The notes under the pieces are model-generated. The model did no database searches. It was given only the letters and a program-made list of their open reading frames with translations, and had not been told where the DNA came from. The position numbers and the translations under genes were made by a program. Shown here one piece after another: positions 21,583 to 26,189 of a DNA stretch of 64,000 nt (the stretch's first letter is position 1; each line of letters begins with the position of its first letter). The stretch lies in contig DATAVA010000026.1 in the NCBI GenBank assembly GCA_036267975.1, positions 8,482-72,481 on the forward strand, in the 5' to 3' direction. Source of the DNA: Steroidobacteraceae bacterium (lineage in GTDB: Bacteria > Pseudomonadota > Gammaproteobacteria > Steroidobacterales > Steroidobacteraceae).

Positions 21583-23718
21583 ATGCTGATGCGTACATGG
21601 AAACTGATCCCGGGACTTGCGACGCTCGGCGTCCTCATGAGCATCATCGCCTCGTATGCGGCAACGGCGGCCGACGGTGCTGCGGATGTGAACGCCAAGC
21701 GCATGATGGATCCGGCGGCGACGGCCGCGAACTGGATGTCCTATGGGGACACCTACTCCGAGCAGCACTTCAGCGCGCTGACCCAGATCAACAAGAATAA
21801 TGTTTCGCAGCTGGGGCTGGCCTGGTTCGCGGACTACGACACCAATCTGACCCAGGCCGGAACCCCGCTGGAGATTGACGGCGTGATTTATGTCTCCACC
21901 GCCTGGAGCAAGGTGTATGCGTTCGACGCCCACACCGGCAAGACGCTGTGGGAGTACAACCCGAAGACGCCCGGGGACTGGATCCGCAATGTGTGCTGCG
22001 GCATCGTCAATCGTGGCATCGCGGCCTGGAATGGCAAGATTTATCTTGGCACGCTTGATGGCCGGCTGGTCGCGCTCAATGCAAAGAACGGCAAGGTCGT
22101 CTGGTCGGTGTTGACGATCGATCCCACCAAGCACTACTCGATCACCAGCGCACCGCGCGTGGCCAAGGGCAAGGTGCTGATCGGCGAATCCGGCGGCGAG
22201 TACGGTGTGCGCGGCTACCTGAGCGCCTATGACGCGCAGACCGGCAAGATGGACTGGCGCTTCTACACGGTGCCGGGTGATCCGAAGAAGGGCTTCGAGA
22301 ATCCAGCCATGGCAATGGCGGCCAAGACCTGGGGCGGTGAGTGGTGGAAACTCGGCGGCGGCGGCACGGTGTGGGATGCCATCGTGTTCGATCCGGTCAC
22401 CAACCTGGTGTACTTCGGTGTCGGCAATGGAACACCGTGGAACGATCACTTCCGTGACCCGACCACCAAGGACAACCTGTTCCTGGCCTCCATCGTCGCG
22501 GTCAACGTCGACACCGGCAAGTACGTGTGGCACTACCAGGAAACCCCCGCGGATACCTGGGACTACGATGCCGTGAGCCCGATCGCGGTCGTGGACATGA
22601 AGATGGATGGCAAGGAGCGCCGCGTACTGCTGCAGCCGAGCAAGAACGGTTTCTTCTATGTGCTCGAGGCGCGCACCGGAAAGCTGCTGAATGCGACGCC
22701 CTTCGTGGATGTCAACTGGGCCAGCGGAGTGGACCTGAAGACCGGTCGCCCGCGCGTCAATCCGGCCGCCCGTTTCCCCGAAGGCAAGCCATGGGACCTC
22801 AGCCCAGGCGTGCAGGGCGCGCATGGCTGGCATTCCAATGCCTACAGTCCCGATACCGGCTTGCTGTATGTGCCGACGCAGATTGCGTACTTCCCCATGG
22901 TATTTGATCCGACCTACACGCCCAATCCGGTCGGCTACAACCTCGGCATCGATTTCGGCGCGCAGCTCACCTACTACAAGAGTCATCCCGAGGCGCCGAA
23001 CAAGTTCGTCGGTTACCTGCAGGCCATTGACCCACGGACCGGCAAGAAGGTCTGGGGTGGGCCGCAGAATCAGGGCCCGACCGGCGGCGCCGTGGCGACC
23101 GCCGCTGGCCTGGTGTTCCAGGGTGGCGGCTCAAGTGATGATTTCCGGGCCTTCGATGCCACGTCCGGAAAAATCCTCTGGACCGCCCAGACCCAGACAG
23201 CCGTGCTGGCTGCCCCCATCTCGTATGAACTGGATGGCAAACAGTACATAGCCGTCAGCGTGGGTGGGGCGGTTCCGGGCGGTGATTATTACGCGCCGAA
23301 TCACTCGCGGATGCTGGTATATACCGTGGGTGGCAGCGCCCAGCTGCCGGCGCCGCAGCCGTACACCCCGCGCGCCTTACTGCCCCCTCCCGACAAGGCC
23401 ACGGTCGCGCAGGTGCATCAGGGCGAGCAGTTGTACGCGCGCAATTGCGCGGCCTGCCATGGTGATCGCGGCCAGACCCGCGGTGCGAACTTCCCCGACC
23501 TGACCCGCACGCCGCTGTTATGGTCGCCGGATGGCTTTGATGCGATCGTGTTGAAGGGCCTGCTGAAGGACAAGGGCATGGCCTCCTTCGCCGAAGTGCT
23601 GAAGCCGACGGACACCGCGCTGATCCGCGACTTCATCATCAATCAGGCCAATCAGCTGAAGAACAATCCACAACCTGCGGCGCCGCCACCCGCAGCGGGC
23701 GCTCACGAGCAGCATTGA
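21583..23718 (+). CDS. Quinohemoprotein PQQ-dependent alcohol dehydrogenase (type II, C-terminal cytochrome c)
   Basis: 711 aa with a signal peptide. NWMSYGDTYSEQHFS, vicinal CC in NVCCGIVNRG, W-docking propeller repeats and C-terminal CAACHGD. Confidence 0.92.
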   Translation: MLMRTWKLIPGLATLGVLMSIIASYAATAADGAADVNAKRMMDPAATAANWMSYGDTYSEQHFSALTQINKNNVSQLGLAWFADYDTNLTQAGTPLEIDGVIYVSTAWSKVYAFDAHTGKTLWEYNPKTPGDWIRNVCCGIVNRGIAAWNGKIYLGTLDGRLVALNAKNGKVVWSVLTIDPTKHYSITSAPRVAKGKVLIGESGGEYGVRGYLSAYDAQTGKMDWRFYTVPGDPKKGFENPAMAMAAKTWGGEWWKLGGGGTVWDAIVFDPVTNLVYFGVGNGTPWNDHFRDPTTKDNLFLASIVAVNVDTGKYVWHYQETPADTWDYDAVSPIAVVDMKMDGKERRVLLQPSKNGFFYVLEARTGKLLNATPFVDVNWASGVDLKTGRPRVNPAARFPEGKPWDLSPGVQGAHGWHSNAYSPDTGLLYVPTQIAYFPMVFDPTYTPNPVGYNLGIDFGAQLTYYKSHPEAPNKFVGYLQAIDPRTGKKVWGGPQNQGPTGGAVATAAGLVFQGGGSSDDFRAFDATSGKILWTAQTQTAVLAAPISYELDGKQYIAVSVGGAVPGGDYYAPNHSRMLVYTVGGSAQLPAPQPYTPRALLPPPDKATVAQVHQGEQLYARNCAACHGDRGQTRGANFPDLTRTPLLWSPDGFDAIVLKGLLKDKGMASFAEVLKPTDTALIRDFIINQANQLKNNPQPAAPPPAAGAHEQH

Positions 23719-23727
23719 GCGCAGCAA

Positions 23728-25104
23728 TCAATCGTGCAGCGTTTTGACGTCCTGCGCGAATTCGGGCTTGGTCGCCAGCAGAATATCGAATGCCGTCTGC
23801 GCATCCGGGGTGCCGTGCAGGTTCTGCGCAAGCTTCGCGTACAGGTATTCGCGGACGAACAGCGGCAGCGCATCGAAGCCTTCGGAATAGATCAGAAAGC
23901 TCACCGGATAACGGAATACGCGCCTGTCCAGATCCAGTTCCCGCAGCGAGCGACCACGCGAATCCCTCGGACCCTGGGCCTGAAACCATTGCGCGTAGCC
24001 GCTGCTGCCCGCGACTTTGTCCGGCAGCGGTGCCGCGCCCCGCACGAGCAGCCCGTCCGCCACCGGGGCCAGCAGTGGGTCGAGCCGGCCCTGCAAAGTC
24101 ACCGGCAACTGCGCCCAATGCAGGCTCGCGGCATCCCCCGTGGGCAGTAAACGGGCGAGCAACATCCGCGATTTGTAATTGGCCCGGATGATGAGATTGT
24201 GCACCGTCACCTGATGCTCGAGCACCAGCAATGCCACGATGTCGGAAGTCTTGCGCAGGTATGGCGAAGTATCCAGCAGCGAGTCAAGCGACATGAGGCT
24301 GCCGCGCCTGACCTTATCGAGCGCGAGCGGGGTATTCGAGGCGGGCGGCTGGATGTTGCCCAGATGCATGGCACCGCCGTCCTGGCCCGTGACGTACCAA
24401 CCGCCCCAGCGCTCGGCAATCGGCGTCTCATCGGCAGTCTCTCGGGCGACGGCATCGGGGATCAACTTGCCATGGTCCACTTCGTAGGTTGACTCGAACA
24501 GGAAGCGTGGCACCCCGCCCCCCATTTCCGAATACGAGTCATGGCAGGTCAGGCAGCGCAGTGCCTGGCGGTCCAGGTTGGCATGGCTGTCTGCGGCCAT
24601 CACGGTGTAGAACACCGGTCCCCGGTCCGCATCCATGGTGTTGATCTCCAACATGCCGGTCTTCTGGACCCAGGCGACGTAAGTGTTGTCGTTGAAGTAG
24701 ATTGCGCGCGGCGTGGCCGCACTGATCGCATCGACCTGCAGGCTGGTCTTCGAGAACACCAGCACCTGGGAGTCCGGATCGATGTTCAGGGCCTTCAGGA
24801 TCGATTCCAGATAGCCGTGCTGCGGCGTGGCGGTGAGCTTCACTGTGCCCGCCTCGATGCGCTGCTGCAGGCGCGCGATTTCGTTGCGTACCGGCGGGTC
24901 GGAATAATGGATGAAGGGATAATCGCGGTCATAGACCATGACCGAACCGCCATCCGGCGGGCGGCGCGCATCCGAGGTGGGGCCGGATTCGGGCTGTGCG
25001 CCATAGCTGACGATGCGCGCATCGGGCGCGCCCGCGAAGGACACAGTGGCGCTCGTGGCCAGCAGGGCGACCACGAACAGCAATCGCATCACCGGCAGTT
25101 TCAT
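23728..25104 (-). CDS. Secreted protein of unknown function with one CxxCH heme-attachment motif
   Basis: Start refined to ATG 25104 (MKLPVMRLLFVVALLATSATVSFAG), overlapping the TGA of the Rrf2 gene. CLTCH is encoded at 24541..24555. The upstream part of the ORF-track call overlaps the Rrf2 gene in another frame. Confidence 0.75.
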   Translation of the reverse strand: MKLPVMRLLFVVALLATSATVSFAGAPDARIVSYGAQPESGPTSDARRPPDGGSVMVYDRDYPFIHYSDPPVRNEIARLQQRIEAGTVKLTATPQHGYLESILKALNIDPDSQVLVFSKTSLQVDAISAATPRAIYFNDNTYVAWVQKTGMLEINTMDADRGPVFYTVMAADSHANLDRQALRCLTCHDSYSEMGGGVPRFLFESTYEVDHGKLIPDAVARETADETPIAERWGGWYVTGQDGGAMHLGNIQPPASNTPLALDKVRRGSLMSLDSLLDTSPYLRKTSDIVALLVLEHQVTVHNLIIRANYKSRMLLARLLPTGDAASLHWAQLPVTLQGRLDPLLAPVADGLLVRGAAPLPDKVAGSSGYAQWFQAQGPRDSRGRSLRELDLDRRVFRYPVSFLIYSEGFDALPLFVREYLYAKLAQNLHGTPDAQTAFDILLATKPEFAQDVKTLHD

Positions 25105-25547
25105 GGCCGCGCGCCGCTGTTGCCGGCCGTCGCCGCGGAAAACAGCCGATGCAACTGATTGCGGCGGACCATCATGTCGGCCAGCGTGTATTGATCGAGC
25201 ACCGCCAGGAAGGCGCGCGTCGCCTGCGCAAACACGTTGTTCACCTGGCAGGCCGGTGAAATCAGGCAATTGGGGCAATCCACCAGTTCGAAGTGCTTCT
25301 CCGTATGGCGTATCAGGGCGCCGAGGTTGATGTCCGCGGCCGCGTTGCGCAGGCGGATGCCGCCGTGCCGACCGCGCACGGTTTCGACGTAGCCGGACTG
25401 CCCGAGGTCCTGGACCACCTTCATGAGGTGGCTTTGCGAGATCCCATATGCCTTCGCAATTTCCGCGATGCACGAGAGTCGGTCGGAATAGGTCGACAGG
25501 TACGTCAGCACGCGGATGGAATAATCGGTATAGCGGGTCAGATGCAT
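25101..25547 (-). CDS. Rrf2-family regulator, NsrR-like (three-Cys cluster motif)
   Basis: 148 aa. MHLTRYTDYSIRVLTYL, HTH ISQSHLMKVVQDLGQSGYVETVRGRHGGIRL, Cys triad CPNCLISPAC. Confidence 0.88.
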   Translation of the reverse strand: MHLTRYTDYSIRVLTYLSTYSDRLSCIAEIAKAYGISQSHLMKVVQDLGQSGYVETVRGRHGGIRLRNAAADINLGALIRHTEKHFELVDCPNCLISPACQVNNVFAQATRAFLAVLDQYTLADMMVRRNQLHRLFSAATAGNSGARP

Positions 25548-25588
25548 CGGATGTCGGGCTCCACAGGGTTATCCGGAGCGGTTCTAAT

Positions 25589-25611
25589 AATATGCATTTG
25601 AAATGAATGTT
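25589..25611. promoter_or_regulatory. NsrR-type 11-1-11 inverted repeat
   Basis: AATATGCATTT-G-AAATGAATGTT. The left half fits the E. coli NsrR half-site AANATGCATTT as I recall it, and the right half fits 10 of 11. Lies 42 bp upstream of the Rrf2 start, in the divergent region shared with osmC. Confidence 0.65.
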
Positions 25612-25760
25612 TAAAGGGCACACACCTTTGCCGAGGGGTAAAGGCAGACGTTGGGCCCCTGCAGGGCCGCTGCGGTTCGTGCTGCGGTGCTAAGATTCCC
25701 CTAATCGGTTGAATAACCCCCTTCACAGCGACGACCTAAGCTCGTCATTAGAGGTTTGAG

Positions 25761-26189
25761 ATGAAGATCACACGCACCGGTTCGGCTGCCTGGCAGGGCG
25801 GCCTGAAGGACGGCAAGGGCACGATCTCAACCCAGAGCGGGGCGCTCAGTGCCTATCCCTATGGCTTCGCCAGCCGCTTCGAGGGCGTGAAGGGCAGCAA
25901 TCCGGAGGAACTGATTGCCGCGGCCCACGCCAGTTGCTTCACCATGGCGCTGTCGCTGATCCTGGGCAATGCGGGCCTTGTCGCCGAACAGATGGATACC
26001 AAGGCGGCCGTGAGCATCGAGCAGATCGGTGATGGTTTCGAGATCACCTCATCGCATCTGACCCTGCGCGCCAAGATTCCGGGAATCACCGCCGCGAAAT
26101 TCACCGAGCTGACGGGGATGGCGAAGGCCGGATGTCCGGTGTCCAAACTGCTGAAGACCGAGATCTCCCTCGAGGCGACTCTGGTCTGA
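25761..26189 (+). CDS. osmC: OsmC peroxiredoxin
   Basis: 142 aa, closely parallel to E. coli OsmC (G.A.W.G....GKGT.ST.SG.L...PYGF..RFEG.KG.NPEELI.AAHA.CF.MALS, AKAGCPVS). Confidence 0.9.
   Translation: MKITRTGSAAWQGGLKDGKGTISTQSGALSAYPYGFASRFEGVKGSNPEELIAAAHASCFTMALSLILGNAGLVAEQMDTKAAVSIEQIGDGFEITSSHLTLRAKIPGITAAKFTELTGMAKAGCPVSKLLKTEISLEATLV

Follow-up and report, generated by a model that had tools for sequence, protein, structure and literature searches.

An NsrR-type operator and an nsrR-like gene joined to a gene for a predicted exported mono-heme c protein of an undescribed family in a Steroidobacteraceae genome

The NsrR regulons are the main guide to the bacterial genes that cope with nitric oxide (NO). 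In the NsrR-hmp module, found in E. coli, Bacillus, Streptomyces, Lysobacter and Sphingobium, a regulator of the Rrf2 family carrying Asp8 and three cysteines is combined with an operator of the 11-1-11 inverted repeat class that overlaps the promoter of the target gene. The target is the flavohaemoglobin Hmp, and the regulator gene is divergent from it. RirA, the iron-responsive Rrf2 regulator of the Alphaproteobacteria, forms the sister clade of NsrR. Cytochrome c' (CycP) and cytochrome P460 are small mono-heme c proteins of the periplasm and either bind NO or hydroxylamine or convert them. The present work concerns a stretch of 64,000 nucleotides from a Steroidobacteraceae bacterium (GenBank assembly GCA_036267975.1, contig DATAVA010000026.1, positions 8,482 to 72,481 of the forward strand), hereafter the window, in which an apparently orthologous regulator gene and an operator of the same class stand together with an unannotated gene for a predicted exported mono-heme c protein.

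Both genes lie on the minus strand and would form a two-gene operon. The first, nsrR (25101..25547), encodes an Rrf2-family protein of 148 amino acids with the features of an NsrR-type repressor (Asp8, Cys91, Cys94 and Cys100). The second (23728..25104) encodes a protein of 458 amino acids from an unannotated family, predicted from its sequence to be exported and to carry a single heme c. The TGA of nsrR overlaps the ATG of the second gene by 4 bp (ATGA, 25101-25104), an arrangement kept in at least five of six orthologous loci. The operator, AATATGCATTT-G-AAATGAATGTT (25589..25611, read on the plus strand), lies inside the sigma-70-like promoter element TTTAAA-17-TATTAT of the operon (25587..25615, minus strand). 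The pair is therefore co-directional and overlapping, whereas in the NsrR-hmp module the regulator is divergent from its target; the target also differs, since the heme protein is unrelated to the known regulon members. The initial annotation, made from the window's letters, had described the 11-1-11 repeat, a C-x2-C-x5-C triad in the Rrf2 protein, the overlap of its TGA with the ATG of a signal-peptide protein and a single CLTCH motif in the latter, and each of these was found again. It had also placed the box 42 bp upstream of the regulator gene; the upstream position holds, and the distance to the ATG at 25547, measured from the end of the box, is 41 bp.

The reading that we regard as probable is that NO relieves the repression by NsrR and that this leads to the coupled synthesis of a periplasmic NO-handling heme c protein. 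The Rrf2 dimer would carry a [4Fe-4S] cluster, to which one subunit contributes Cys91, Cys94 and Cys100 as ligands and the other subunit Asp8. Bound to the 11-1-11 operator, between and over the -35-like and -10-like hexamers, the dimer would block transcription. NO would then nitrosylate the cluster, the repressor would leave the DNA and both genes would be expressed, the second one being translated by coupling through the ATGA overlap. The heme protein would be exported by the Sec system, and the Ccm system would attach heme c to its CLTCH motif. Once in the periplasm, it would act on NO, or on species directly derived from NO, by binding, reduction or oxidation. In this scheme the operon would be the sole operator-bearing NsrR target of a genome that lacks flavohaemoglobin and quinol NO reductase (qNor). 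This reading, classical NsrR repression through occlusion of the promoter, is the best supported, and its regulatory half rests on conserved anatomy and orthology. We infer that the regulator binds a cluster and responds to NO and that heme is attached to the 458-aa protein, and we likewise infer that this protein acts chemically on NO.

The 148-aa protein matches the Pfam family Rrf2 (PF02082), a winged-helix domain, over residues 3-126 (2e-32, 112.6 bits). Its best NCBIfam match is NsrR with 131.9 bits, and IscR and CymR score far lower. The best relative in the Protein Data Bank (PDB) is the NsrR of Streptomyces coelicolor (5N07, E = 1.6e-16), and the cluster cysteines and Asp8 of that structure align with Cys91, Cys94, Cys100 and the Asp8 that closes the N-terminal segment MHLTRYTD8. 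The first cysteine spacing of the known NsrR members is longer than the x2 of the window regulator. In NsrR, Asp8 serves as the fourth ligand of the cluster (PMC5411485), while a highly conserved Asn8 is found in RirA and IscR uses His107 (PMC10510648). The genome contains one other Rrf2 gene, whose product is 27% identical.

The most telling evidence for the NsrR identity is the context of the homologues. Three of them come nearest once the Steroidobacteraceae clade is set aside: P0326, with 68% identity, the Lysobacter protein P0359, with 63%, and the Sphingobium protein P0376, with 56%. Each of their genes is divergent from a flavohaemoglobin gene (Globin and NAD_binding_1 domains). The three intergenic regions contain two NsrR-type boxes each, for example AACATGCAATTAAAAAGCATGTT. 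The hmp-linked homologues score on the NsrR and RirA models as the window regulator does, and P0326 and P0359 also stay below the NsrR cut-off, with 136.9 and 133.6 bits. Falling short of that cut-off is a property of the clade and consequently not evidence against NsrR. By its residues and the context of its orthologues, the regulator is an NsrR orthologue, of the NsrR rather than the IscR, CymR or RirA type.

Another explanation is that the signal for the regulator is iron, oxygen or the general redox state, as it is for RirA, RsrR and IscR, instead of NO. The heme protein would in that case serve the handling of iron or heme, or a general periplasmic redox chemistry. The window regulator resembles RirA in its three cysteines, in its fold family and in its RirA score of 129.4 bits, nearly equal to its NsrR score, and both scores are under the respective cut-offs (182 bits for the NsrR equivalog NF008240). 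TonB-dependent receptors are encoded nearby, planctomycete partners of the heme-protein family have a RirA-like C-x7-C-x5-C spacing (one of them scores slightly higher on the RirA model), and a second, unclassified Rrf2 type is also paired with the family. Nevertheless, the two marks of RirA, Asn8 and an IRO-box operator, are not those of the window: residue 8 is an aspartate, the operator fits the NsrR consensus, and inspection of the 23-bp box revealed no IRO-type motif (TGA-N9-TCA). The homologues beside hmp genes, as well as the qNorB and globin genes that share operons with family members (see below), point in the same direction, and sensing of iron or redox state is quite unlikely.

The arms AATATGCATTT and AAATGAATGTT are complementary at nine of 11 positions around the central G, and the box deviates from the NsrR consensus AANATGCATTTNAAATGCATNTT by one mismatch. 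No match with up to three mismatches arose in 100 dinucleotide-preserving shuffles of the window. The box is also the only site within four mismatches of the consensus in the whole 4.13-Mb assembly, where the next best sites have five. The NsrR site of E. coli ytfE reads AAGATGCATTTAAAATGCATCTT, and E. coli sites with ChIP-seq support contain the arm AAATGAATGTT (PMC5320621). An older comparative consensus is gATGyAT-N5-ATrCATc (PMC1274295). The element TTTAAA-17-TATTAT that encloses the box, read from 25615 to 25587, is the only sigma-70-like one between 23500 and 25900.

The intergenic region was aligned for seven loci, namely the window and six metagenome-assembled genomes of Steroidobacteraceae (L001-L006) whose heme-protein orthologues are 67-88% identical to the window protein. 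The longest invariant block, CTTTAAA(C/G)ATTCAT.T..AATG(C/A)ATATTAT, corresponds to the operator with both promoter hexamers, which are themselves invariant, and its surroundings are divergent. The box is thus supported as a conserved operator that overlaps the promoter of the nsrR operon. Two further features of the alignment concern the layout of the region. In four of the seven loci (L003-L006) the -10-like TATTAT ends 6 nt before the ATG of nsrR, which gives a leaderless layout, and about 35 additional nt are inserted at this place in the window (25548-25588), L001 and L002. Just upstream of the operator, at about 25625-25655 of the window, all seven regions share a conserved block TTTACC...GG(C/T)(C/A)AAAGGTG that could be the site of a second regulator.

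The initial annotation had suggested that the same box may also control the divergent osmC and YVTN-propeller genes, and this suggestion is unsupported. The box is 149 bp away from the start of osmC and about 80 bp from a conserved block, ATCTTAGCA, which is a possible -10 element of osmC. The scan of positions 23500-25900 found no promoter-like site that faces osmC and overlaps the box. The spacing and the lack of such an overlapping promoter are the reasons for which the control of these genes is set aside.

The genes around the operon suggest a further explanation. Throughout the genus the locus is syntenic with a convergent pyrroloquinoline quinone (PQQ) dehydrogenase gene, a PQQ-associated YVTN propeller and an SO2930-type diheme cytochrome, and PQQ dehydrogenases are also found nearby in the loci L018 and L045. 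The heme protein might then be an electron-transfer accessory of this quinohaemoprotein dehydrogenase cluster, and the position of its gene beside nsrR would be without functional meaning. On the other hand, the PQQ gene is convergent with the operon and is not transcribed together with it, and a PQQ neighbour occurs in only two of the 74 loci outside the genus. The preserved 4-bp overlap with nsrR and the independent recurrence of the Rrf2 linkage in other phyla also speak against this explanation. In addition, with its domain of some 400 residues and many invariant polar positions, the protein is no simple electron carrier. A role as PQQ accessory is accordingly very improbable. Homology between the heme protein and the neighbouring SO2930 diheme cytochrome was considered as well and rejected, the alignment being limited to the CxxCH region.

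The 458-aa protein contains exactly two cysteines, both in the heme c attachment motif C184-L-T-C187-H188 (24541..24555, minus strand). Its N-terminus is hydrophobic, with a predicted Sec signal peptide that was judged by inspection (residues 1-25, MKLPVMRLLFVVALLATSATVSFAG, 25030..25104, minus strand), and all relatives have an N-terminal region that is hydrophobic and of variable sequence. The CxxCH motif is present in all 80 relatives that were fetched, and Cys184, Cys187 and His188 are invariant in an alignment of 45 members. The same alignment shows invariant Y67, Q113, R133, Y136 and E153, the block R232-W-G-G-W-Y237, and further invariant residues at H247-x-G-N250, S287-D288, H297-Q298, D381 and R385. 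The features expected from a c-type cytochrome are found together, that is CxxCH, an exported protein as judged by inspection and CcmE in the genome, the heme itself being predicted only. The presence of CcmE makes the attachment of heme c feasible.

The family is large. A large protein collection holds more than 7,400 homologues, all of them unnamed or labelled "hypothetical", with 2,946 representatives at 50% identity (E up to 0.001). They are distributed over Steroidobacteraceae, other Gammaproteobacteria, Planctomycetota, Acidobacteriota, Verrucomicrobiota, Armatimonadota and others. Neither the 458-aa protein nor its 45 relatives match any Pfam or NCBIfam family, and no PDB match of the protein was found by phmmer or by profile. 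No family match connects it to the known NsrR effectors (Hmp, NorB, YtfE, NnrS and Hcp), and the Hmp and qNorB queries miss it. A model made with AlphaFold2 from the family alignment is confident (mean pLDDT 87, pTM 0.86) and comprises a beta-meander and a C-terminal helical bundle, together with the helix of the predicted heme site and a conserved region of irregular structure. Foldseek returned nothing below E = 0.1 from the PDB, the best hit having E = 0.14 and a TM score of about 0.1. Full-text literature searches found no paper that describes the family. Since the Pfam, NCBIfam, PDB and Foldseek searches are empty, the family is thus undescribed, with a predicted fold that has no solved relative. 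The protein accordingly appears as the initial annotation had presented it, uncharacterised and hard-wired to the sensor through the ATGA overlap.

Cytochromes CycP and P460 are among the closest known systems. Like the window protein they are periplasmic (the window protein by prediction), contain a single CxxCH and are associated with NO stress. No similarity in sequence or predicted fold links them to it, and their size, about 130-180 residues, differs from the roughly 400 of the window protein, which mixes a beta-meander with a helical bundle and has no relative in the PDB. More tentatively, the protein may represent a new class of periplasmic heme c enzyme that has a fold with no solved relative and converts NO, for example by reduction to nitrous oxide (N2O) or oxidation to nitrite, a possibility we hold to be clearly less probable than the general handling of NO.

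The genome that carries the operon (72 contigs, 4.13 Mb, 64% G+C, completeness listed as 100%) seems to lack the usual means of NO detoxification. A search for the Globin family gave no match in it, and gave matches in the E. coli, B. subtilis and D. radiodurans controls. The genome is consequently without hmp, which differs from those of the NsrR-hmp module. A qNor cytochrome-like domain is also missing from it, tblastn revealed no full norB, and no NirK match exceeds the cut-off. A search for NnrS was uninformative, since its controls gave no match. A 238-aa open reading frame (ORF) at C57:44920-45636 (L099 2920-3636, minus strand) shows 36% identity to the N-terminal membrane part of qNorB; as a norB candidate it was rejected, being not full-length and having no Pfam match. 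Because a single operator exists in the genome, NsrR appears to be dedicated to its own two-gene operon. A comparable situation is that of Streptomyces coelicolor, in which the NsrR regulon is very small and local (PMC4432287).

The gene neighbourhoods of the family were surveyed in 80 loci, with one genome per species. An Rrf2 gene adjoins the family gene in 16 of them, so that the pairing seen in the window is not confined to it. In the remaining loci no Pfam family occurs in more than two of the 103 flanking ORFs, which leaves the Rrf2 regulators as the only recurrent neighbours, in three gene orders. The NsrR-like regulators, with Asp8 and three cysteines, are co-directional and upstream in Steroidobacteraceae and divergent in Isosphaeraceae and other Planctomycetota. 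The second, unclassified Rrf2 type is found in loci of Pirellulaceae, Planctomycetaceae and Bryobacterales; one of these regulators stands divergent from two family paralogues in tandem (L032 5908-8671).

The origin of the linkage was examined on a maximum-likelihood tree of 83 family members. The NsrR-linked genes fall into at least two separate, well-supported clades. For the second Rrf2 type, whose five loci belong to different subclades, the tree requires two or more gains or losses. The Rrf2 linkage therefore arose repeatedly and independently. In a survey of 151 Steroidobacteraceae genomes, the 34 that contain the family represent eight of 40 genera and have at most four paralogues each. 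An orthologue of at least 68% identity accompanied by nsrR is found only in the genus of the window.

Operator-like sequences accompany the NsrR-like genes elsewhere. In L118 the heme-protein gene precedes the nsrR-like gene, and AAGATGCATATGAAATGTATCTT is found upstream. L130 and L131 have the same gene order with a variant palindrome, AATGGG(C/T)ATATGAAATACC(C/T)ATT at about 1399-1424, which overlaps TATAAT and seems to be an operator whose specificity has diverged inside the NsrR-like clade. The pair is divergent in L109. The planctomycete box, AATATG(G/C)ATTC..(G/A)ATGCA(A/G)ATT, overlaps the -10 of a promoter-like element directed towards the heme-protein gene, and it is unique or nearly so in five genomes of 10-16 Mb. 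Singulisphaera sp. GP187 (L091 1500-1860) possesses a second promoter with an NsrR-like box beside a decayed, internally deleted Rrf2 remnant, and a second site in Singulisphaera sp. Ch08 (L090) resembles this extra box. The flanking ORFs have no Pfam match.

The operons of other family members connect the family to NO. In three loci (L028, L037 and L059) the heme-protein gene is directly upstream of a quinol NO reductase gene (PF22085 and COX1); in L059 the two are separated by a truncated globin gene, the spacings being -4 and 12 bp. The locus L076 has a protoglobin gene, which stands between the Rrf2 gene and the heme-protein gene. The initial annotation had proposed a role for the heme protein in the response to NO or nitrosative stress, and these operons, together with Rrf2 as the sole recurrent neighbour, bear out a connection with NO. 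The NO link of the effector rests on this repeated, independent gene linkage. The planctomycete arrangement, in which the NsrR-like gene and box face an operon that ends with the NO reductase, is also similar to that of the NsrR-controlled aniA/norB of Neisseria and nirK of Nitrosomonas. In the latter organisms the nitrite reductase is a copper enzyme, whereas the first gene of the planctomycete operons encodes a heme protein of the family.

The position directly upstream of qNorB is a frequent one for nitrite reductases, and it raises the explanation that the heme protein makes NO or acts upstream of it, as a new heme nitrite reductase or hydroxylamine oxidase under NsrR control. The control of nirK by NsrR is documented (PMC1274295), and the nirK/aniA genes of Nitrosomonas and Neisseria provide the precedent. 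The invariant R133, R232, R385, Y136, Y237, H247 and H297 would suit an anion-binding heme pocket. However, since the window's genome is without qNor, Hmp and NirK, an NO-forming protein as the sole NsrR target would be self-harming, and induction by its own product makes more sense for a consumer. The production of NO by the heme protein is unlikely, and a protein that consumes or binds NO fits better in a genome that has no NO reductase.

Several observations weigh against the regulated handling of NO as the function of the operon, besides the sub-threshold NsrR score of the regulator and its close RirA score already given. No chemistry is readable from the predicted fold of the heme protein, because the model has no structural relative. 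For a lone mono-heme protein, no electron donor or acceptor is evident in the operon. About 80% of the family members are without an Rrf2 or NO-related neighbour; for this reason the function of the family may be broader than NO and include, for example, other reactive nitrogen or oxygen species. The genome itself encodes a second paralogue (46% identity, contig C2) without a regulator. The sequence of the locus was found in soil DNA metagenomes, and no RNA runs containing it were found. The C2 paralogue belongs to an apparent operon (C2:27916-30886, L081 5917-8887), in which a 145-aa membrane ORF lies before it, joined by an ATGA overlap, and a MltA lytic transglycosylase gene follows.

The regulatory device of the window is already known, and the new part is its target, a member of a large heme c family without annotation. 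Its partner in the window is NsrR, and in other genomes the genes of the family are linked to Rrf2 regulators, qNor and globins. The effector has a fair chance of being an NO-handling protein of a new kind. Since the gene and operator of a putative NO sensor are joined in one operon to an unannotated heme protein, the family is a strong candidate for NO handling in soil bacteria without the usual detoxifiers. In the window's genome, from which the standard detoxifiers are missing, the sensor seems dedicated to a single undescribed gene. The family itself comprises thousands of sequence clusters and occurs widely among the Planctomycetota, Acidobacteriota, Verrucomicrobiota and Gammaproteobacteria of soil and fresh water. 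The domain databases do not include it, and its confident predicted structure has no solved relative. The module is also carried by a cultured and sequenced organism, Singulisphaera acidiphila DSM 18658.

If the proposed conversion of NO is true, some soil Steroidobacteraceae would use the heme protein in place of flavohaemoglobin and NO reductase, and the same enzyme would work beside qNor in Planctomycetota and Acidobacteriota. It would then be an unrecognised player in the turnover of NO and N2O in soils. Binding or conversion of NO by this family would add a component to the nitrosative-stress defence of these bacteria and to the NO and N2O fluxes of the soils they inhabit.

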